The notes under the pieces: generated by a model | What the model was told of the DNA's origin: nothing | Databases searched by the model: none | What the model saw: only the letters and a program-made list of their open reading frames with translations | Assembly: GCA_964016885.1 (NCBI GenBank) | Contig: OZ024741.1 | Location: 382,788,001-382,852,000, forward strand | Direction of reading: 5' to 3' | Length of the DNA: 64,000 bases | Source: Eledone cirrhosa | Lineage: Eukaryota | Made by a program: the position numbers and the translations under genes | In this document: positions 4,338-59,290 of the stretch, one piece after another | Position numbering within the stretch: position 1 is the stretch's first letter | Layout: the number at the start of each line of letters is the position of its first letter

Positions 4338-4461
4338 CTCCTTCGTTATATATATATATATACGAAGTCTGCTAATATGCAAATCAAGCCGATCTGTCAC
4401 TGTGTATTTTTGAAAATAGCATATATTTTCACAAACTCTGACAGTTTGGCAGGTGAACAGT

Positions 4462-4511
4462 GAGCTGTACTGATGAAGGGTGATACCCAGAAAGATTAGT
4501 GTCTGCAGTTC
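4462..4511 (+). ncRNA. Type I HHR (family G copy 1)
   Basis: gagctgta-CTGATGA-agggt gat accca-GAAA-g attagt g-TC-tgcagttc. 8-bp stem I with wobbles; stem III base mismatched. Confidence 0.8.
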
Positions 4512-4900
4512 TGTTCGCATGTCAACATAGGAGCAACAAGGATGTGTTAATTCTACTGACATAGCTATAAAATTGAGACTTGTTTGCACAATTGTAAATG
4601 AATCGAATATTATTACTAATATAAACATAACTCTTATTACATTTATTGTATTCGGCCATGTAGAGCGAAATTTTCTTTTTTTATTTGAATTTGGCAAAGT
4701 CGGCCATTTATCGCTCATATACAGGAAACTGACTGGCCAGTCTGCTGATATGCATATCTGGCTGATCAGTGGATCTACTAATATGCAGATCTGACTGATC
4801 AGCCAGTCTGCTAATATGCAAATCAGGCCGATCAGTCACTGTGTATTTTTGAAAATAGCATATATTTTCACAAACTCTGACAGTTTGGCAGGTGAACAGT

Positions 4901-4950
4901 GAGCTGTACTGATGAAGGGTGATACCCAGAAACATTAGTGTCTTCAGTTC
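4901..4950 (+). ncRNA. Type I HHR (family G copy 2)
   Basis: gagctgta-CTGATGA-agggt gat accca-GAAA-c attagt g-TC-ttcagttc. Confidence 0.85.
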
Positions 4951-5113
4951 TGTTCGCATGCCAACATAGAGCAAGAATGAAGTATTCATTCTACTGACAT
5001 GGCTATTAAATTGAGGCTTGTTTGCATAATTGCAAACGAATCGAATGTTATTATTAACATTCGAAAAGGTCAGATTACATTTATTGTATTCAGCCATGTA
5101 GAACGAAATTTTC

Positions 5114-5150
<37 letters not shown>

Positions 5151-5313: not shown

Positions 5314-5449
5314 AACAAAGTCAATCTGTAAACGCAGAAGTGGATATTTCAAAAAACGTTGCAACCAGAGGAAGACAGGAAGACGATACTTTGGTTCGTG
5401 GAAACGTTCCCTGACAAAGAACGGGAAAAAACGAATATAATACGTCATT

Positions 5450-6900
5450 AATAGGAGCGTTACTGATCTTATCGGCCTTTTCCTTCTTTTCTCTATCAAG
5501 GACGAATTCCCCAACGCGGGCGGCGGTTTGTACCGTGATGATGGTCTTTTGACCATGACTAATTGCGGACCTCGTGCTTGCGACAGGTTCAGAAAAGAAC
5601 TCACAGCCTTCTTTAAAAGCTTCAACTTCTCTATACAGGTTGAGGCCAATCTCTCGGTCGTTAATTACCTCGACGTTACCCTCAATTTATCGAATGGGTT
5701 GTATTACCCGTATAGAAAGCCGAATGATACGCTTAATTACATAAGTAAGCATTCCAACCATCCTGCCAGCATAACCAAGAACCTGGTAAAAAACGTTTCG
5801 TTGAGGCTTTCCCGTCTATCTACTAACGAGCATATTTTCAACGACCATTCCACCTATTACAATGAAGCTCTTGCTCGGAGTGGATTTGTCGATAAGGTAG
5901 CATATACAGAGTACAAAAATAGACCTAGAAGTAATAGATCCCGTCGCATTTGTTGGTATAACCCACCATATAATATGGAGGTGGCCACACCATTAACTAA
6001 GATCTTTCTTTCCCTTATTACGAAGCATTTTCCCCCTACACATAAATATAGTAACATTTTTAATAGAAATACTATTAAAATTTCTTACTCTACGACTCCT
6101 AACCTTGCACATAACATCACAGCTTCAAATTTAGCTAAACTACCTAACCGTAGGAACACGTGCAACCCTGTACTTAGTGCTAACTGTAATTGTAGGAATC
6201 GGCTTGATTTCCCCCTATCCGGGAAATGCCTCTCTAGTAACATTGTCTACAAATGTAAGGTTGAAACACCCACGTCCCGTAGGGCCTACATAGGGTTAAC
6301 CACCAATAGATTCAAGCAGCGTCTTTACATGCATACCCATTCTTTTCGTTAACCTCTTAGAAGGAATATGACGTCACTTTCAGCTTATATCTGGAGTCTA
6401 AAAGACAACCACACCCAATTTAAGTTACACTGGGAGATCCTAGATAGGGCTAGGTCGTATAACGGAAATAAAAGACCATGTGACCTCTGCGCTCCTGAGG
6501 CCCTGGAAATACTCTACGCCACAGACCACATCTGAAACAAAAAATCTGAGGCAATTTCCGCTTGTAAACATAAATTGCACAAACATTTCCTGTTTTACAG
6601 CCCCACATTATACCCTAACAGATAGTACGATCTATACGTGGATTTTTTAGGTCTTGATGTGGTAGGTAAGTATATATTTTGTTTATACCATTACTTATTT
6701 GCATAGGTAAGTATATATTACCTGTATGTTTTGTGAAGGTACGTATACTTTCTCATACGTATATTTGATTGTTTATGTTGTGGCGTATACATTTTTTTGT
6801 CGGGGATTAGTTAGTAGAGGCGCAAACTTGTGCAATCCCATTAAGGTGCATACACGACAACCTATAGTTTATGTGATAACCTGTCTTCGGTGAGGCTCTA
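5450..6900 (+). mobile_element. 5'-truncated PLE (RT C-half plus GIY-YIG), CxCx5C/Hydra-like
   Basis: YRDDGL, NYLDVTLNL, WYNPPY, CNCRNRLD(F)PLSGKCL, IVYKC..AYIGLTTNRFKQR in ORF 5528-6352. Premature stop. Confidence 0.92.
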
Positions 6901-10925: not shown

Positions 10926-10929
10926 CATA

Positions 10930-11222
10930 TATCACTCATTTCTTTTTTCAGCAAAGGAAGGGAGATAAGCTGACAGATATGTTGCACCCTGTTGGTGTTC
11001 CTCAGAGCAACGTACTCGCCGACCTCTGCTGAAAAGTATAATGGCTGGATTCTTATAGAATTCCAGTAATAATCAGAAACTGATTATACAGAGCGATTGC
11101 CGATCCAGCAAACATTAAAAATTAGGATTGGTGTTCTGAAATAGCGATGTATACATGAATGTATGTATAATACATTTGGTAATATACTGTATGTTTAATT
11201 AAAAACATTTTGAAGACCTTTA
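10930..11222 (-). mobile_element. Family F monomer with a mutated HHR (GAAA changed to GCAA, 10969-11008)
   Basis: Homologous to 24450-24750. Confidence 0.75.
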
Positions 11223-13980: not shown

Positions 13981-14499
13981 TAATATAATGATACCTTTAA
14001 TGTATTATAGGAAAATGGATTGTATTTAAAATTAAATATATAAGTAAATAGCATTATATAAAAGGGATTCATTTATGACATAATATATTATATATTAGCA
14101 CAAGGACTTTAACTAATTGGAGCTGTAAACAACTATACATTTTTTCTATTATATACAAATTAATCGCTAATTACCTCCCCTTTCACATTAGCTCCTCTTA
14201 ATATTGATCTCTAATTCACTTCCTGAAATTAAACCGTTAGACAGATCACTCTTGAACAACTAGAACCCTGAATAAGATTGTAATGGCACCAATATACAAT
14301 CCATAGTTGTAACTACTTATAAACATTCACTAAAATATAACCAATCTAATGGAAAATAAAACCTTAATATTAATACCCACAACACATGCACATTTGAAGA
14401 TTACAGAAACAATGATCACACTACATCCACCATAAACTTCATAGAAACTACTTTTAATAGACAAACATCTTTCTCTGCTTATAAGGAGCGAAAAAGATC

Positions 14500-15311
14500 T
14501 CTTTGGATTTGTACGCGTCTGTTATTTAGTTATAGAGGTGCGTATATATATTTTAATTTATATTTTTAAATATTGTGTGTCTGCCCTGCCTTTCATAGGT
14601 TATAGATTCCATACACTGCTGGTTTTTCTTTGTCTTATTTATTGGCGCACTATCTCTCTCTAGTGTATTACTTTTTCTACATAATTTATTTTAAAGAGCT
14701 AAGGATTCCTTTTCCTTTGAGCACATTATTGACATGGAATAACGAGAGACTATGGCTCCGTGAATTTATCATGATATTTCGCGCCTTATAACAGTCTTTC
14801 CTCTCTTTCTGTTTGGTTGAGCACACTTCACTGAGGGGTTTTGGGCTGTCATTTCTAGCAGCTCGTCCCTCAGATACCACTGGTTCACTGCCCTAAAAAT
14901 GCTGTGACATCTCTCTCCCGCGTGTGGCTGGACGGTCGCTTTGGATTCTTTTAGAGTTTTATTAAATGTATGGCCTTGCACGCGCTGATGAACCATAGGC
15001 TGTTCCATTTCAGTCAACAACTTCGTTGGTGAAACAGATGTCTTTGGATTTGTACGGGTGTGTTATATAGTTATAGAGGTGCGTATATACATTTTAATTT
15101 ATATTTTTAATTATTGTGTGTCTGCCCTTCATTTCATAGGTTATAGATTCCATACACTGGTAGTTTTTCCCTGTTTTATTAATGGCGCACTATCTCTCTC
15201 TACTGTGTTGCCTTTTCAACATATTGTATTTTAAAGAGCTCCGGATTCCTTTTCCTTTGAGCACATTATTGAGAGGGAATAACGAGAGTCTATGGCTCCA
15301 TTAATTTATCG
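14500..15311 (+). repeat. Family I tandem repeat (541-bp period) with an HHR-like core at 14985-15042
   Basis: 14500-14770 recurs at 15041-15310. CTGATGA-acca[31 nt]tggt-GAAA-cagatg-TC. Stem I does not pair well. Confidence 0.6.
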
Positions 15312-24284: not shown

Positions 24285-24336
<52 letters not shown>

Positions 24337-24494
24337 TAGGATAGGTGCTCCGAAATAGCGATGTATACATGAATGTATGTATAGTATATTTGGTAATATA
24401 CTGTATGTTTAATTCAAAACATTTTGAAGACCTTGCGCTATTATTTTAAAGTAGTGACTATGTCACTTACTTCTTTTTCCAGGGAGGGAGAGAA

Positions 24495-24535
24495 GCTGAC
24501 ATATTCTGTTTCACACTGTTGGTGTTCCTCAGAGC
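24495..24535 (-). ncRNA. Type I HHR (family F)
   Basis: gct-CTGAGGA-acac caaca gtgt-GAAA-ca gaata tg-TC-agc. Confidence 0.85.
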
Positions 24536-24838
24536 AACGTACTCGTCGACCTCTGCTGAAATGTATAGAGGATGGATTCTTATAAAATTCCAGTAATACT
24601 CAGGAACTGATTATACAGAGCGATTGCCGGTCCAGCAAAAATTAAAAATTATGATTGGTGCTCTGAAATAGCGATGTATACATGAATGTATGTATAGTAT
24701 ATTTGGTAATATACTGTATGTTTAATTCAAAACACTTTGAAGACTTTACGCTATTATTTTAAAGTAGTGACTATGTCACTTACTTCGTTTTTCAGAATCA
24801 AGCATCTATAATTTTCAGCAGAGGTCGGCGAGTACGTT

Positions 24839-24879
24839 GCTCTGAGGAACACCAACAGTGTGAAACAGAATCTGTCAGC
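24839..24879 (+). ncRNA. Type I HHR (family F), canonical core
   Basis: gct-CTGAGGA-acac caaca gtgt-GAAA-cag aat ctg-TC-agc. Confidence 0.88.
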
Positions 24880-25033
24880 TTCTGTCCCTTCCTTTGCTGA
24901 ACAAAGAAGTGACATAATCACTACTTTAAAATAATAGCGCAATGTCTTTAAAATGTTTTAATTAAACATACAGTATATTACTAAACATACTATACGTACA
25001 TTCATATATATATATATATACAAGTATATATAT

Positions 25034-26217
25034 ATTGTTATGCTTTGGGAGGGTCTTGTTGCCAATAAAAAACACACGCACCAGTTGCTTTCACTTCAAT
25101 TTATTATAAATTAAATTTATACATTTAGGAATTTATACATTTCCGGTTGGCTGGTTGGTTCCACAACCAGACGATTGTTTATATATTGTCAAAGTTCTTT
25201 TGTCACACATTCTGTGACCTCTTCAGTCACTGGGGATTATTTTCTTTGTTTTTGTGCCTCTCCTTTGTTCTATCCTACGCCATCTTGTTTTTGTGTGTGT
25301 TGTGTGCTTAGTTTGCGCATGTGTTACATCCGGGTGTCCGTGTGTGTTTATATTTATTTATTTATTTGTTTATTTACATCTTACTGCTTGGTTGTTTGTT
25401 CTATGTGTGTGTGTTTTCATTTTGTCCTTAATTGTAAGTTGTGATGTTGCTGTTCCATTTATGTTTTCTATTTAATTTTGGTTGGAGTTCATTTATGTTT
25501 ATTGCCTCTGTGATTTGTCTAAACATTGCGTCTTTTCTGTATGTAGATTCTATTTTTATTTCTATGTTCTCTAATTTACCCTTATGTTCTATTTTAGCAT
25601 GTTGGTGGCGTACGGATGATTATTTAGTATCTTGAACGTCTCGCCAGTGTTCATTTATCCGTTCCCCTACACTACGAGCTGTCTCACCTATGTACACTAT
25701 ATTCTTATCTCTACATTGTCCTTCAGTACATCTTATGCTATATACTACATTTCTAGTTTTACAGTTAATATGGGGGCTTAGTTTACAGATTATACATTAC
25801 TTATCTATACAGGGAGGTCTTTGAAAAGGGTATGTATTGCTAATGAGTGTTTTTATAGAGGTACCTGGTCTTTCTACTATCTGAATATTGAGTTTATGTT
25901 TATCTAGGACACTTCTAAATTTGTAAGCTAATTTACCTCTAGGGGTTGTATCGATGAACATTACACTCTGGTATTTATTACTATCATACCATGAGTTTAT
26001 TCTATTAACCTTATTCCTAGTTCTTTCTATTCTATTGCAAAAATTTGCTCCTATACAAGGGGCAGGTTCCATTTCTAACATTATGTACCATTTTTTCCCA
26101 TTTGGTTCTGGCTCCTCTATATACTTTGATTTTTATTGTCATCATGACCCTCCCAAAGCATATCAGTTTCAACACACGTATTCAGATAAAGAATCTTGCT
26201 AAACAAATTCAGAAACG

Positions 26218-26220: not shown

Positions 26221-26295
<75 letters not shown>

Positions 26296-26309
26296 GTATA
26301 TATTTATAT

Positions 26310-26622
26310 AAAAAAGACATGTTTCGCTCTACATGGGTGAATACAATAAATGTAATCTGAGTTTTTCGAATATTAAAAATAACGTTTGCAATTATGCAAA
26401 GAAGCCTCAATTTTATAGCCATGTCAGTAGAATGAACCCTTCATTCTTGCTCTTGTGTTGGCATGTGACCAGAACTGCAGTTCTGTTCACATGCCAAACA
26501 AAAGAGCAAGAATGAATGGTTCATTATTCTGACATGGCTATAAAGTTGAGGTTTGTTTGCATAATTGCAACCAAATCGAATGTTATTATTAATATTCGAA
26601 AATCTCAGATTACATTTATTAT
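26310..26622. repeat. Family G fold-back centred on the HHR cleavage site
   Basis: Palindrome centre agaactgcagttct (26471-26484). The right arm starts with tgcagttc, the first bases after GUC in the 4462 HHR. Confidence 0.8.
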
Positions 26623-26683
26623 ATATATATATATATATAAGTATGTATGTATGTATATATATATTTATATGTAAATATATACC

Positions 26684-27541: not shown

Positions 27542-30500
27542 TGTTCTACTAACCATGCTCTTAATAAAAACACACGCAGCAGTTGGATCTCACTTCAATC
27601 TATTATAAATTACCGGTAGGTTGCAGGTGAAATAGTTAACCTATTTATGGTATGGTGGGATAGAAGACTTAAGGAACAATTAGACGACAATTTTATAATC
27701 CTGACATAAACATCGTAGTGAAAACAACCCCGATGAAGAGCACCATTAAAAGCATCGAGCAAATAGTTAATTCCATCTACCAGAATATTAAACTTACTAT
27801 AGACTACCCAACTAAACATCCCAACCATAGATTACCCGTACAAGACAGAACTTTGGCTGGAAACTATTAGTAATAGGACGCAAATCCTCCATTCGCATTA
27901 TGCCAAACTATGACCACCAAATACCTGATCCACCGAAACGTAGCTGTTTCTGATCACATACAAATCAACTGATTGCGGACTTAGTAAGAGAGATGAGGAA
28001 CATACAACACTTCATCCACGGCATGCAGCTTTCTGGTTTCAATCAGAGAGATAAAATCAGGGTATATAAAGGAGCCAGAACCAAATGGGCAAATATTGTA
28101 GAAAATGATTCAAATTGAACTTGCGCATGTATAGGAACACATTTTAGAACAGAATAGAAAGGATTCGGAATAAGACAAATAAAATCAACTCATGGTATGA
28201 TAGCAATACATACCAGATAGTAATGTTCATCAATACAACCCTTAGTGTCGAACTAGCTTACAGATTTAGATGGGCCCTAGACAAGCTGTAATTAAATATG
28301 CAGACATCATGTCTGCCATCAAGTCCTTCCCAGCTAGCAGCAGCGGGCGTGCTGATGGTATCGGACCAGGCCACCTCAAGGAGTTGCTATGCCTCCTCTC
28401 CGCTGAGGCCGGGCACCGCTTCCTGAGTGCAATTGTGGCGCTCACCAATAGGCTCATCCATGGCACCCTGGATTCTCACGCCTCTTTTTTTCGGCTAGCC
28501 TCACCGCTCCCATGAAGAATGAGGGTGGCATACGCCCCATTGCTGTGGGCAATCTTTTCTGGAGGCTGGCTGCCAGGGTGGTCTGCAGGTCCATAACACC
28601 TGAACTGAGTGAGGAGTTCAGTACGGTGCAACTGGGTGTCGGCGTATCTGGTGGCTGTGAGAGGACCGCACATGCAACTAGGCAGTTATTCAACAGAAGA
28701 CCACCGGAACCAACATCCAGGGACTCCAGGTACCTCATTACCAAGCTTGACATGAGGAATGCCTTCAACTGCTTGCGCCGGGACTCTCTGTTCGATGCCT
28801 GCCTCAGCCGAGCCCCCTCTGCCTACACGCTGGCCTACCTATCGTATAGAGCCCCGAGCATGCTCCTTGCTGCTGATACGGTCATACCTTCGGCTACTGG
28901 GGTTCAACAGGACGGCCCTTTGGGACCTCTCCTGTTTGTCCTTGGTATAGACCACATCGCCCGGAGTATCATGGCCCTTCTCAACGTTTGGTATCTGGAT
29001 GATGCTATGTTGGGCGGGCCCGTACAGACTGTCTGCCATGACCTACAATCGGTGATTCCTGTACTGGCGGGAATCGGCCTCCAGGTCAACTCGGCCAAGT
29101 CGGAGAGGGTGAATGTCAGCCACGATACTGAGAGCTTTGCAGCCCCGTCTAGGACATGCGGTCCAATCTCCACTAGGTACATGTGGCCCCCAAATAGGAT
29201 GTCGTCATCCTCGGGTCACTGAACCACCTGCCGGCCATTCCGCTCCACCATCAGGTCCAGGCTTCAACAACTCCAGACTCTCACGAGCCGACTGGGCTTG
29301 ATCGACGGCCACCCAGCTCTCTTTCTGTTGAGGTACTACTTCGCCATGCCGAAGCTCCTCTATACCCTTCGCAGCTCTCCGGTCTACACACACATATCTC
29401 TCCTCGCTGACCTCGATACTTGTATCCGAGCAGAAGCCGAGTAGATATGCAACGTCAAGTTTGACGAGATTGGATGGCCACAGGCCACTTTACCTGTCAG
29501 GTATGGCGGTTTTGGCCTCCGGTCCCCAATCTCACTGGCTTTGCCGGCGTATCTTTCGTCGGTAACCTCGTGTCGCGTCCTCGTCAGCAGGGTTCTTCAA
29601 AACACAATAGAACCCTCTGTGTTCAGAGAACGTGAGGCCGCCTGTGAGACGTGGGATCGGCTGGAACATAGCCCAGTAGACGTCCCTCATCCTCCTCCCC
29701 CTGTTGACGTCAAGTAATCCCAAAGAATTTGGGATGCCATCCTGTGCAGCCTGGCCTCAGACAACTCAAGCGCCAGCTCGACCAGCACCGCCTTGCCGGC
29801 TTTCGTGCGGCCTCCAAACCCCATAGTGTTGCCTGACTCCATGCCCTGACCTCCTTCTCGACTGACACGCAGCTAGACAACAATAACCTGCGCATCGGCG
29901 CTTCCTTGAGTCTCGGCCTCCGGATTTGCGATCCACACCAATGTCGCTGTGGATCCACCGTGAAATCTTCCGGACTCCACCTTCTTTCTTGTCACCACAA
30001 TGTCGACCGCCTTCCACGCCATGCTGCCCTCAATGAGGTCATAGCATGGCTTGGATGCTGCGGGCTTCCCTTCCCAACCTGAGCCGGTGGGGATGGGCCG
30101 AGGGGACCTCAAAAGGCCAGATGGCATTACCATCTTCCCGTTCCGCGGTGGCAAACCCCTCGTCTGGGATGCTACTTGCACTGACACTTTCTGCAACCGC
30201 AACCTGCTGCAGTCTGCGACTAACCCAGGTTCTGCTGCACGTCGAGCTGAGGAGCTCAAGCTCCTCAAATACCAGTTGCTCTCCGACAGGTTTGCGGTTG
30301 TACCCCTGCCAGTTGAGACTTCTAGTGTCCTCGGGTCTAGGGCTACCTCCCTACTCACCGCTATAGGCGCTGAGCTGGCCAGCCGCAGGTGTGAACCCTG
30401 CGAGTTGGAGTGGCTTTTCCAGCGTGTCTCCCTTTGCCGTACCTCCTGGAGAACGCCTTCTCCATCCTGTCCGTCCGGGCTGGTGCACGCGTAACATTCC

Positions 30501-36294: not shown

Positions 36295-36732
36295 TTACTA
36301 CTCTAAAACAATAGCATACGGTCTTCAAAATGCTTTTAATTAAGCATAAAGTGTATTGCAAAATATATTATATATACATCCATATATATATTGCTATTTC
36401 AGAGCTCCAATTCTAATTTTTAATTTCTGCCTGACCAACAATCGCTCTGTATAATTAGCTCCTGATTATTTACTAGAATTCTATAAGAATATAACATCAG
36501 TAATCTCAGTAGACAGGAGGGTAGTTAGCCTTGATAAGCTTCAACAAAAGCGAAACAAGGCCCATGTCGGCTTATCTCCCCTGTTTGCTGAGATTAAAGT
36601 AAGTGAATTTGTCACTACTCTAAAACAATAGCATACGGTCTTCAAAATGCTTTTAATTAAGCATAAAGTGTATTGCAAAATACATTATATATACATCCAT
36701 ATATATATTGCTATTTCAGAGCTCCAATTCTA

Positions 36733-36736
<4 letters not shown>
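36295..36736 (+). mobile_element. Diverged family F tandem (317-bp period)
   Basis: actactctaaaacaatagc at 36297 and 36614; homologous to 24810-25005. Confidence 0.8.
36527..36572 (+). ncRNA. Type I HHR with a U3-A8 covariant core
   Basis: agcc-TTGATAA-gctt caacaa aagc-GAAA-ca aggccca tg-TC-ggct. Confidence 0.85.
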
Positions 36737-36785
<49 letters not shown>

Positions 36786-38221
36786 CACATATACATAAGG
36801 TCAACAGCAGCAAATCAGTTTCCGGTGTAACAATGAAAATATCTCAAGGTATGTCAGCATACGGCCATAGATCGTTTTCTTTTTCTATTTAGAAGGAGGT
36901 GCATATTCCATCAACCCTTTCTAGAATTCCAAACTGGTAGGAAGAATGGAAGAAGCTATCCTAAGACGCGATGTATATCCCAAAAGGTACTTGCGATAGA
37001 GTAGCAAACACACTTAAAGGTGTAAGCGATGTCAGAATGCGAAAGCTAATGTTAGATTATGTCTTATATAAAGCCAAATATCCGGGAAGCAGAATCTTAC
37101 CTTCTTAAAGACTAAAAGAATTACATTTATACGGTTTATAGTAATAGCCCCAGTGAGAATATTTCCATAAAACGCATTGAAATATTTATAGCAGATTCTA
37201 CAATAGATAGATAAATATTTGAGACGAGCGAATAGTCGATTATATCGGCCTTGGCACTTAAATATTACTTATTTTATCGACCCCAGAAGAGTGATCTATG
37301 AAGGTGAACTTGTTGTTTGAATTCTAACCATATAGCATTTTATCTATATACCACATGGCATGTTACTCACTGTCCTACTGATTATATTTAATAATAGTTA
37401 AACAATAGTCATTATACATTGAATTATATGGAAATTTATTTCATTTACCTGTTACAGTCTTTTTCGTCTCAGCTTCAGATTGAGAGTCACCTGGGTTTCT
37501 TATATTCAAAAGATGTGTAAAATAAAATGTTTCCGTTGGATTTAATGCGATTGTGTCCAAACGATGGAGAAATAGCATGTTTATTCAAGTATGTGAGGAT
37601 AGCAATACAGTAGTAACAGAAAGATCAGAAGCGACTACAGTGAATATATGATTGGCCAAGCATAATTCTTAAGCAAATTCCGAAAATATATGTAATGAAA
37701 TAGAATAGATATTTAATAGAACGATCACATTTAAACAATCTTGTTTTCGCTTGCAACTGACATGTTTTCCTCTATGAAGCCTGAAACGTAATTTACGCAT
37801 TAGAAATGTATTTGTTTCTTTCTATTTTTGTTCTTGGTGTATTGAACTGTTTTATAATAGAGTTCTAAAAGTTCTGTAAGAAATACCGGAAACCTTACAT
37901 GATAGATGTTAGAATATTTGTGTCTTAATGTGTAAGTATTGTACACAGTATGTACTCATTATGAAAATGGATGCATGTTTGTATATGTGTGTGAAAACGT
38001 GAGACAGTAAATTTGAGAGCGTGTATCTTTTTATATAAACCTTATGTATCTTGACTACATACGAAGTATATATATGTATGTATAATACATTTTTGCATCA
38101 TGAATATCAGGAACATTTAAAAACCGGCCTTTTGTTTTCATTGAAGTGTATATTTATACGAAACACACACATACACACACACTTATATATATATATATAT
38201 ACATTTATATATACCTATATA

Positions 38222-41206: not shown

Positions 41207-42014
41207 TTTCCGTTGTGTTGTAATATAAATATTACACACAGTAGATTGACAGCTCACGTAGAGTTTGATCGACGGTTCCAGCTGTAGTTCCAAAAGTAAT
41301 CCGGAGAAAAATAGAAATATTTGAATGGATACAGTTTAGTTGAAAGGAATTTATTGACACGTGTTTCTATAACCTGAAAACAGCTGCTATCTACAAAGTA
41401 TTAGTTATGCAGACATTCAATATTTCAATGTTATTATTTACTGTCATTTCATCAGAATAATATTACTGAGGACCTATTTGGTTTTTATAGACAATATTAG
41501 GAGGGAGGGGTGAAGTTGTTAGAAGAATAGTTGAGGGAGTGGTTTTTTGATAGCAGTGAGAATTTTTGGTGGCAGTGAGTAATTAGATTCCCATCTGTTG
41601 TTTTGACATTTTTTATAGAATATATTATTAGTTATTTTTCTAAATCTATAGAAGGATTAGAGATAGTGAAGATATGCGTGGTTGGTTTTGTGTTTGCACT
41701 TAATTAACATTCAGACTTAAATTTTTCTTTCAAGTGTACGTATCCTTTCACCCACGCATTCACACACAAACATATTTGCACACCTCTACAAAATACATAT
41801 ACTCACATTCACATAGTAACATGTTCATACTTACATACATATACACATGTATACATATATATATACACACATGTATTCATGTACATACATACGCGTTCAT
41901 GTGTATACATTTTCATACTCAACTTATCTTTATATACACTCGTATAGACACACACATATATACATACATACTCTAGTCTATGTGTACATATATACATATA
42001 CATACATATCTATC

Positions 42015-46358
<4,344 letters not shown>

Positions 46359-46400
46359 GTAAGTATGCATGTATACGTACATACATATATGTATACAGAC

Positions 46401-46439
<39 letters not shown>

Positions 46440-46653
46440 TACATACATATGCATACAGGTACACATATATATATATATATATACATATATACATACATAT
46501 GCATACAGGTACACATACATATATGCACGTATCAGTTTAGCGGCGCTTATTATAACGTCGCTTTGTTCGTTTGTAAACAAACTGAACAGCCTGAATTTAT
46601 GCCATACGGTGTTAAGGCAACCACGTCACCTTTTTGTTCAACACTGACACAGG

Positions 46654-46698
46654 AACGATGTACTAGTTTCAAGCTTGTTAGCTATCATCAGCACCGTT
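46654..46698 (-). ncRNA. Minimal type I HHR with palindromic stem III
   Basis: aacggtg-CTGATGA-tagc taacaa gctt-GAAA-ctag-TA-catcgtt (ACTAGT palindrome). Confidence 0.88.
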
Positions 46699-47230
46699 TA
46701 CCCATCTGCCAGATAGTTGAACGTTCGAAAGTATATACTTTCCTTATGAAAATTAACGGTTTATTAAGTTGAGTTTGAAAATGTATACACATGAACGCGT
46801 ATGTATGTACATGAATACATGTGTGTATATATATATGTATACATGTGTATATGTATGTAAGTATGAACATGTTACTATGTGAATGTGAGTATATGTATTT
46901 TGTAGAGGTGTGCAAATATGTTTGTGTGTGAATGCGTGGGTGAAAGGATACGTACACTTGAAAGAAAAATTTAAGTCTGAATGTTAATTAAGTGCAAACA
47001 CAAAACCAACCACGCATATCTTCACTATCTCTAATCCTTCTATAGATTTAGAAAAATAACCAATAATATATTCTATAAAAAATGTCAAAACAACAGATGG
47101 GAATCTAATTACTCACTGCCACCAAAAATTCTCACTGCTATCAAAAAACCACTCCCTCAACTATTCTTCTAACAACTTCACCCCTCCCTCCTAATATTGT
47201 CTATAAAAACCAAATAGGTCCTCAGTAATA

Positions 47231-47351
47231 TTATTCTGATGAAATGACAGTAAATAATAACATTGAAATATTGAATGTCTGCATAACTAATACTTTGTAG
47301 ATAGCAGCTGTTTTCAGGTTATGTAACTGTTATAGAAACATGTGTCAATAA
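47231..47351 (+). ncRNA. HHR with a 74-nt loop in stem II
   Basis: ttatt-CTGATGA-a atgacagt[74 nt]actgttat a-GAAA-c atgt g-TC-aataa. The mirror copy at 41351-41460 has a deletion in stem II. Confidence 0.75.
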
Positions 47352-47385
47352 ATTCCTTTCAAATAAACTGTATCCATTCAAATCT

Positions 47386-47449
<64 letters not shown>

Positions 47450-57313: not shown

Positions 57314-58059
57314 CTACACACACATATACATACGATTATATATATGTATATACTTCGATACTATATATATCTTATATTCTAATGTTTTGAAAAAATAAAG
57401 GTATATATTAATATATAGTGAGGATTGCATATACATAAGTAAATAAACAAAGGGGAAACACTTAGATTAATTATAATACAAATCATATTATAAGATTTTA
57501 GGCAATGGGTGGCAGGATAAGAATGTATTATTGGGGGCCTATAATGTAAGCATAATATATATAATATATTTTGCGAAGGAATGATGCCACTTATGTTGTT
57601 ATGATATATATATGTATATATCTAAGAAACCTACAATTATATTAATATATCTACATACAGATAACTATTAAATCAATCATACAAATATATACATTTAGCT
57701 ATATATTCTCTTAAATGATTAAGAGATTTTTGAGAAAACATCCGCTGGATATCTCTGTTCTTTTATTAATAATAGATTTTGTATTACTAATGATATGAAG
57801 TATTTCAATATTACGGAGATTACAATTTTTATAAATAGAAGAATTTACATATGGTGAGGCATTAACTAGCTTATGTCAAGATAATGAGCAATCTATGTTT
57901 TTTTTGTTTTTAGGGACCATATTATTTAAGATAGAGAAGTTCAGAACTTCTTATCCATTCTTTTAAAAATACGCGTTGTACCACCGTTCCTTAAATTTAG
58001 ATGAAGTGGCACCTATATAGTTACACGACTTATCATATATATATATATATATATATATA

Positions 58060-59290
58060 TTGTTATACTTTGGGAGGGTCATGTTGCCAATAAGCAACAC
58101 ACGCACCAGTTGCTTTTACTTCAATTTATTATAACAAATTTATAAATTTAGGAATTTATAAATTTCTGGTTGGTTGGTTGGTTCAACAACCAGATAGTTG
58201 TTTATATATTGTCAAAGATCTTTCGTCACACATTATGTGACCTCTTCAGTGACTGGAGATTCTTTTCTTTGTTTTTGTGCCTCTCCTTTGTTCTGTCCTA
58301 CGCCATTTTTTTTCTGTGTGTGTGTTGTGCGCTCAGTCTGCGCATGCGCCACATCCGGATGTCTGTGTGTGTTTATATTCATTTATTTATTTGTTTATTT
58401 ACATGTTACCGGTTGGTTGTTTGTTCTATGTGCGTGTGTGTTTTCATTTTGTTCTTAATTGTAAGTTGTGATGTTGCTGTTCCACTCATATGTTCTATTT
58501 AATTTTGGTTGGAGTTCATTTATGTTTATTGCCTTTGTGATTTGTCTAAACATTGCGTCTTTTCTGTGTGTAGATTCTATTTTTATTTCTATGTTCTATT
58601 TTAGCATGTTGGTAGAGTACAGATGATTATTTACTATCTTGAAGGTCTCGCCAGTGTTCATTTATCCGTTCCCCTACACTACGAGCTGTCTCACATATGT
58701 ACACTATATTTTTGTCTCTACATTGTCCTTCAGTACATCTTATGCTATATACTACATTTCTAGTTTTACAGTTAATATGGAGGCTTATTTTACAGGTTAT
58801 ACATTTCTTATCTATACAGGGGGTCTTTGAAAAGGGTATGTCTTGCTAATAAGTGTTTTACGGAGGTACCTGGTCTTTCTACTATCTGAATATTGAGTTT
58901 ATGTTTATCTAGGGCACTTCTAAATTTGTAAGCTAATTCACCTCTAGGGGTTGTATCGATGAACATTACACTCTGGTATTTATTGCTATCATACCATGAG
59001 TTTATTCTATTAGCCTTACTCCTAGTTCTTTCTATTCTGTTCCAAAATTTGCTCCTATACAAGGACAGGTCCCATTTGTGTCATTATTTACCATTTTTCC
59101 CCATTTGGGTGATGAGAAACGTGTCCCGCATGCGCAACCTCGAAGAACTAGAGAGACACATACAACACTTCATCCACCGTAAGCAGTTCTCTGGTTACAA
59201 TCAGAGAGATAAAATCAGAGTGTATAGAGGAGCCAGAACCAAATGGGAAAAAATGGTAAATAATGACACAAATAATTTATTAACCTGCCA
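58060..59290 (-). mobile_element. Family C PLE 3' part (minus) with an inverted internal segment (59110-59290, plus)
   Basis: Collinear with 25034-26110; ORF 58808-59062. Confidence 0.85.
58211..58253 (-). ncRNA. Minimal type I HHR (family C)
   Basis: gtca-CTGAAGA-g gtcaca taatg tgtgac-GAAA-gatc-TT-tgac (AAGATCTT palindrome). Confidence 0.85.

Follow-up and report, generated by a model that had tools for sequence, protein, structure and literature searches.

The window analyzed here, a stretch of 64,000 nucleotides from the genome of Eledone cirrhosa, is AT-rich and contains many (TA)n tracts and several pieces of Penelope-like open reading frames (ORFs). At 24333-25005 it carries two arms, in opposite orientation, of a non-coding repeat unit of 313-318 nt, hereafter family F, whose positions are numbered on a circle starting at the first base after the predicted GUC cut. 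The long arm (24333-24795) contains about 1.5 units with a period of 313 and lies on the minus strand, which is the ribozyme strand of the long arm at this locus (24332 in the first-pass annotation). It runs from circle position 21 to ~168, and its 3' end falls at the fixed long site described below, beside a (TA)n tract (24288-24333) inferred to be the insertion target. The inverted short arm (24794-25005, plus strand) runs from circle position 236 to ~134-142 and has its 3' end at the fixed short site, beside a second (TA)n tract (25006-25019); an unrelated Penelope-like element shares this tract, its 3' end meeting that of the short arm tail-to-tail. The 5' ends of both arms overlap by 2 nt, and the 3' ends of both arms face (TA)n.

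The first-pass annotation had reported this unit at three loci as monomers of 313-317 bp, and both points agree with our analysis, in which it was found at 10928-11220, 24333-25005 and 36297-36739. The arm at 10928-11220 (minus strand) comprises 0.92 unit, from circle position 69 to 44, with a non-standard 3' end beside a microsatellite and a damaged hammerhead core (GCAAC instead of GAAAC). The arm at 36297-36739 (plus strand) comprises 1.4 units with a period of 317, from circle position 46 to ~166-171, and terminates at the fixed long site, with (TA)n adjoining at 36736-36797. Two subfamilies are thus represented in the 64-kb window, F1 at 10928 and 24333 and F2, with a U3-A8 ribozyme core, at 36297, where the copy is 99% identical to the F2 consensus and 78% to that of F1. 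The different starting points of the copies, also noted in the first pass, were confirmed for the 5' ends only; three of the four arms in the window have their 3' end at one of the two fixed sites.

The consensus sequences of F1 and F2, each 318 nt long, are identical in 244 of 323 alignment columns (76%), with compensatory changes present, and neither encodes an ORF, the longest stop-free stretch in a trimer being 62 aa for F1 and 50 aa for F2. The median identity of the genome copies to their own consensus is 95% for F1 and 98.5% for F2. Older relatives are present as well (loci L045 and L227), together with a very young 310-nt sister family that is 66% identical to F1, the unit length being kept at 310-318 nt over subfamilies that are 66-76% alike. 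A 16-base core motif common to the whole series occurs 27,446 times in the genome, compared to once for the reversed control, a figure that counts units rather than insertions and includes the 310-nt sister family. Positions ~70-200 are conserved through the subfamily series, whereas the ribozyme hairpin diverges, as judged from insertions sampled in genome order.

A type I hammerhead motif can be read on the minus strand of 24334-24646; its F1 version consists of the core CTGAGGA, a four-pair stem II with a CAACA loop, GAAAC, a short stem III and the GTC cut, with a stem I of three pairs extended as a long interrupted hairpin. In the long arm this motif is located at 24495-24535 (minus strand), with the predicted cut between 24498 and 24497 and one mismatch that weakens stem III; in the short arm it is found at 24839-24879 (plus strand), with an intact core, the same long interrupted stem I and a predicted cut after 24876. 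The F2 motif, at 36527-36572 (plus strand; predicted cut after 36568), has exchanged pairs in stems I, II and III and carries the U3-A8 core. Among 149 ribozyme motifs identified in the arms, 79 have U3-A8 and 64 C3-G8, so that positions 3 and 8 are paired in 143 and mismatched in 6. In a covariation analysis of 37 distinct sequences, 96.8% of the cells pair, compared to 24-38% for slid controls, and 6 of the 12 ribozyme pairs change on both sides between subfamilies, including the change from C3-G8 to U3-A8. This covariation is good evidence of selection, yet it derives mainly from one subfamily split and thus from few independent events. Searches with the Rfam models gave no hammerhead either at the gathering score or at E values up to 10, and the predicted type I assignment, which agrees with the hammerhead monomer of the first pass, rests on the motif, its paired stems and their covariation.

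The U3-A8 pair was already reported in a Penelope hammerhead, that of the Schistosoma Cercyon elements (PMC4209133), whose minimal hammerhead resembles F2 in the core swap and, in many copies, in a palindromic loop III, according to the text covered. Family F differs from Cercyon in that the swap marks one non-coding subfamily while its sister keeps C3-G8, and in a stem III of 3-4 pairs. Family F is also similar to the animal non-LTR retrozymes described in the accessible text of PMC7229834 and bioRxiv 10.64898/2026.07.22.740005, which share with F tandem, non-coding, low-GC units of ~300 bp with a type I hammerhead, arranged as dimers to multimers and lacking LTRs. Short tandem units within ~150-400 bp, dimers to multimers and low GC are all present in F, which by its sequence is an animal non-LTR retrozyme as defined in the text covered of PMC7229834. 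The plant LTR retrozymes were discarded as a model: they harbor a type III hammerhead within LTRs and a 4-bp target duplication, whereas F has a type I motif, tandem units and (TA)n flanks.

To survey the ends, 150 loci were fetched with five different queries, each genome search returning the best 40 candidates. Duplicate loci, arms shorter than 40 nt and all but one of three identical C440 copies were left out, and after merging of duplicates the survey comprised 205 arms in 129 insertions. Loci L069, L122 and L126 are not independent, since they share their flanks; they hold an identical F1 arm within identical flanks, indicating a copy of F that lies inside another repeat and has spread together with that repeat. 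Most arms (178/205) end at one of two 3' sites 26 nt apart, a long site at circle positions ~166-173 and a short site at ~132-142, and among the arms matched by none of the queries 63 of 77 end at the same two sites. The 5' ends, on the other hand, are scattered over 144 different positions. Of the 178 standard ends, 127 run directly into at least three TA repeats, whereas (TA)n follows only 2 of the 27 other ends. The circularly permuted ends proposed in the first pass were therefore not borne out, as the alignment of genome copies revealed two fixed 3' sites that rule out random permutation, also among the arms matched by no query. Fixed 3' ends combined with variable 5' truncation strengthen instead the proposed involvement of a Penelope-like enzyme.

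Head-to-head arm pairs were found 76 times among the 129 insertions, the arms being joined with overlaps of 0-5 nt, most of them of 1-5 nt. When both ends of a pair were standard, 51 of 59 pairs combined one long and one short end (p-value 4.5e-9 compared to 50:50), and in a genome-order sample of 21 insertions all 13 such pairs, across all subfamilies, did so. The ends do not change in arms of 2-26 units, which often have an inverted partner. This tandem, inverted and tailed anatomy matches that of Penelope-like elements, implying mobilization of the Penelope type. Poseidon of Anolis (PMC11167929) and the Neptune, Naiad and Hydra elements (PMC8557442) have, in the text covered, partial tandems, an inverted 5'-truncated copy, a tail at one end, two internal start sites for the reverse transcriptase (RT), extension of both DNA strands and (TA)n or AT-rich targets, features that F shares or, for the RT starts and the two-strand extension, would share. 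The two internal starts and the two-strand extension were demonstrated in vitro (PMC11167929). Family F departs from these elements in having no ORF and in a tail of 26 nt instead of 30-40.

A repeat spread at the DNA level, either a satellite or a fold-back element propagated by recombination or by rolling-circle DNA replication, with the ribozyme being incidental, could account for the higher-order repeats of the longest array and for a unit that folds well on either strand (z-scores of -5.4 and -4.5). Strand-polar fixed 3' ends, 5' truncation, the asymmetry of the tail, targeting of (TA)n and compensated ribozyme pairs would all be unexpected from such a repeat, and we regard this origin as barely credible.

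No in-sense fusion of an F arm to a Penelope ORF was found in the 150 loci (129 insertions) or in the 21 genome-order insertions, in line with the first-pass observation that the unit never occurs with an ORF. The units join directly head to tail, with no RT/GIY-YIG ORF between them, and the ORF pieces near F arms are separate insertions into shared TA tracts; an ORF upstream of the F arm in locus L374 was rejected as a fused partner, as it has a TA end of its own. The first-pass annotation had named fixed ends linked to an RT ORF as the pattern that would speak against its reading of the family; fixed ends were indeed found, the ORF link was not. The lack of an ORF and the Penelope-type insertion anatomy support its description of F as a non-autonomous retrozyme copied by a Penelope-like RT. 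We are confident that family F is a real, abundant, non-autonomous retrozyme mobilized by a Penelope-like element, a class of element that is already known.

It is very unlikely that the copies are just 5'-truncated terminal repeats of an autonomous Penelope-like element and not an independent family. Xenopus retrozymes do resemble Penelope terminal repeats, according to the accessible text of bioRxiv 10.64898/2026.07.22.740005, and searches that return the best 40 candidates could hide rare ORF-linked copies. Against this, the insertions consist of head-to-tail units without an intervening ORF, no fusion appears in either sample, and the unit length is maintained across subfamilies as divergent as those above. 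Among 110 Penelope loci (30 of a young 713-aa family, 30 with GIY-YIG and 50 with the cysteine motif), which represent a small part of the tens of thousands of candidates, no helper with an F-like terminal repeat was found. The young family, with intact 713-aa frames that are 99% alike and end at (TA)n, is represented by loci L196-L225 and by 5441-6352 in the window; the scanned copies gave no standard hammerhead downstream of the cysteine motif. A Neptune-type family (loci L226-L253) has its own U3-A8 hammerhead-like motif in the 3' region, with no similarity to F above that of shuffled sequences outside the motif.

Non-autonomous Penelope derivatives with multicopy head-to-tail insertions are also known among the Chlamys elements, such as MRC1 (PMC8557442). 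According to the text covered, these usually resemble an autonomous family at their 3' end and most of them have no hammerhead; F differs in having the motif and in that no such parent was found among the 110 loci. For animal retrozymes, Penelope elements were proposed as helpers and circles as templates (PMC7229834; bioRxiv 10.64898/2026.07.22.740005), and the accessible part of the preprint further proposes that retrozymes are non-autonomous Penelope derivatives, a proposal that F fits. The link to Penelope comes there from co-occurrence and terminal-repeat similarity, and in F from the anatomy of the insertions; neither fixed 3' ends, nor two-armed insertions, nor the long and short asymmetry are described in the covered text of those papers. 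Conversely, circles were shown experimentally for animal retrozymes, whereas for F a circle is proposed from genome sequence.

With respect to the template, 149 of the 178 standard-ended arms pass the ribozyme cut site, 28 of them twice or more; this count partly reflects the choice of queries, the corresponding figure for unqueried arms being 44 of 63. The sequence across the junction is exact, and of 184 encounters of an arm with the cut 2 ended within 2 nt of it, compared to 2.7 expected. These data support a template longer than one linear monomer, as the first pass had supposed. As so many genomic arms span the GUC junction, a junction read would not distinguish a circle from a read-through transcript.

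The haplotypes of the arms, from which those below 88% identity were left out, bear on the number of templates per insertion. Within an insertion, the two arms differ at 2.3% (F2) and 12% (F1) of the shared-variant sites, compared to 22.5% and 17.1%, respectively, for shuffled partners, which reached the observed level in 0 of 2000 trials in each case. The 56 units of 5 insertions of the 310-nt sister family form 4 insertion-specific haplotypes, with differences of 0.03% within arms and 0.02% between opposite arms, the haplotype being common to both arms where both are multi-unit. A new variant that recurs in all units of the two arms indicates that a single unit was copied over and over. The simple account of such copying is a circle, although repeated jumps on a cut monomer could also produce it. 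On the other hand, successive passes in one F1 arm are no more alike than separate insertions (18.1% versus 17.1% difference at shared sites), and the two arms at 24333-25005 differ at 14 of 173 sites, making the one-template signal weak at this locus.

The same element and enzyme could have used a linear template, by uncut read-through of tandem loci or by end-to-end jumps on a cut monomer, the ribozyme being accessory. Several observations point this way: in the text covered of PMC11167929 the main in vitro substrate was uncut RNA and the anole element worked in vitro without need for its ribozyme, and 8 of 9 Xenopus retrozyme dimers failed to cleave (accessible text of bioRxiv 10.64898/2026.07.22.740005). 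In the genome, arrays of 26 and 9 units could supply multimers, the 5' ends of F2 show a mild enrichment close to the ribozyme hairpin (15/41; p-value 0.026), and the similarity of F1 tandem passes does not exceed random; repeated jumps also predict the same one-unit bottleneck. Nevertheless, read-through alone cannot lengthen the arms or spread a new mutation to all units of the two arms, the pattern found in the sister family, and jumping should leave stops or scars at the cut, in contrast to the rare stops and exact junctions detected. The 9 of 91 F2 indels located near the cut, which might be taken for such scars, match 10 junctions with a common extra T four bases downstream. We thus consider a linear template unlikely, and the sequence comparisons favor a circular RNA as the likely template. 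Circle-templated copying of animal retrozymes has itself been proposed, and not demonstrated, in the text covered of PMC7229834 and PMC4209133.

Part of the array length arose at the DNA level, as revealed by the 4-unit higher-order repeat in the 26-unit F2 array and by an arm that alternates two unit types. The latter, a five-unit F2 arm (L187; G000:C4:165396424-165398032), may reflect a dimer template or a later two-unit duplication. Two other signals were discarded. An excess of F1 arms halting after one full turn (10 versus 3.2) does not recur in F2 and cannot be separated from the effect of the first query, and an A-to-G excess on the RNA strand (100 versus 75; 83 versus 48) is too weak, as inherited variants are counted many times.

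Taken together, the genomic copies suggest that a Penelope-like RT-endonuclease acting in trans probably cuts (TA)n and copies one RNA unit, presumably a circle made by the ribozyme, from both DNA ends. Loci with two predicted ribozymes would release a monomer that is then ligated. One DNA end would prime at the long site, which shares only about 2 nt with the target, its position being set by the protein. The other end would be guided by base pairing, its (TA)n primer annealing to the short site, where the unit most resembles a TA repeat. In both subfamilies (TA)n finds its best match there (8.5 and 10 of 10), while the corresponding in vitro start in the text covered of PMC11167929 is not homologous to the cut DNA. 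Both cDNAs would travel round the template, stop at variable points and be joined. That both ends of the cut (TA)n are primed on a single circular RNA by two distinct rules, one protein-positioned and the other dependent on TA-primer pairing 26 nt upstream, is a tentative proposal. To the same tentative degree, and jointly with it, F (310-318 nt, 66-76% alike) would represent a long-lived lineage of RNA-circle parasites, one that has kept the RT-loading segment and exchanged its ribozyme.

The origin of tandem, inverted and tailed Penelope-like insertions is stated as open in the text covered of PMC8557442. Two-rule priming on one circle, if true, would bring the tail, the inverted arm and the tandem into one model. 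A 318-nt unit with thousands of copies allows exact predictions, namely two positions at which copying starts, each used by one DNA end, and several rounds of copying over a single unit, and the subfamily series shows the segment that the enzyme likely needs (~70-200), with the ribozyme hairpin turning over. The literature covered contains no account of long and short pairing or of a one-unit bottleneck for retrozymes; subscription journals and preprint supplements were outside its scope, so the asymmetry may already be in print.

Other elements of the window have related features. A tandem unit at 4366-5115 (plus strand), with a period of 439, hammerhead-like cores at 4470 and 4909 and (TA)n flanks, is likely another non-coding family of the type of F, and pieces related to it lie near 26277-26680. 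Another tandem unit, at 14490-15310 (plus strand; period 541), has a hammerhead-like core at 14985 and ends at (TA)n. At 42058-43291, a 498-bp unit in 2.5 copies that are 98% alike adjoins (TA)n. Within 41311-47391, nested inverted pairs (41311-41926 with 46765-47391, and 43297-43932 with 45761-46395) enclose a 670-aa Penelope-like RT-endonuclease frame at 44022-46034 (plus strand). The 3' part of a broken Neptune-type element is present in two copies that are 90% alike, at 25006-26105 and 58035-59108 (both on the minus strand); both carry a hammerhead-like motif, and the former adjoins the short end of F. Finally, a GC-rich remnant of a non-LTR-type reverse transcriptase (RVT_1 match) at 28452-30494 includes a hammerhead-like string at 29587 on the minus strand.
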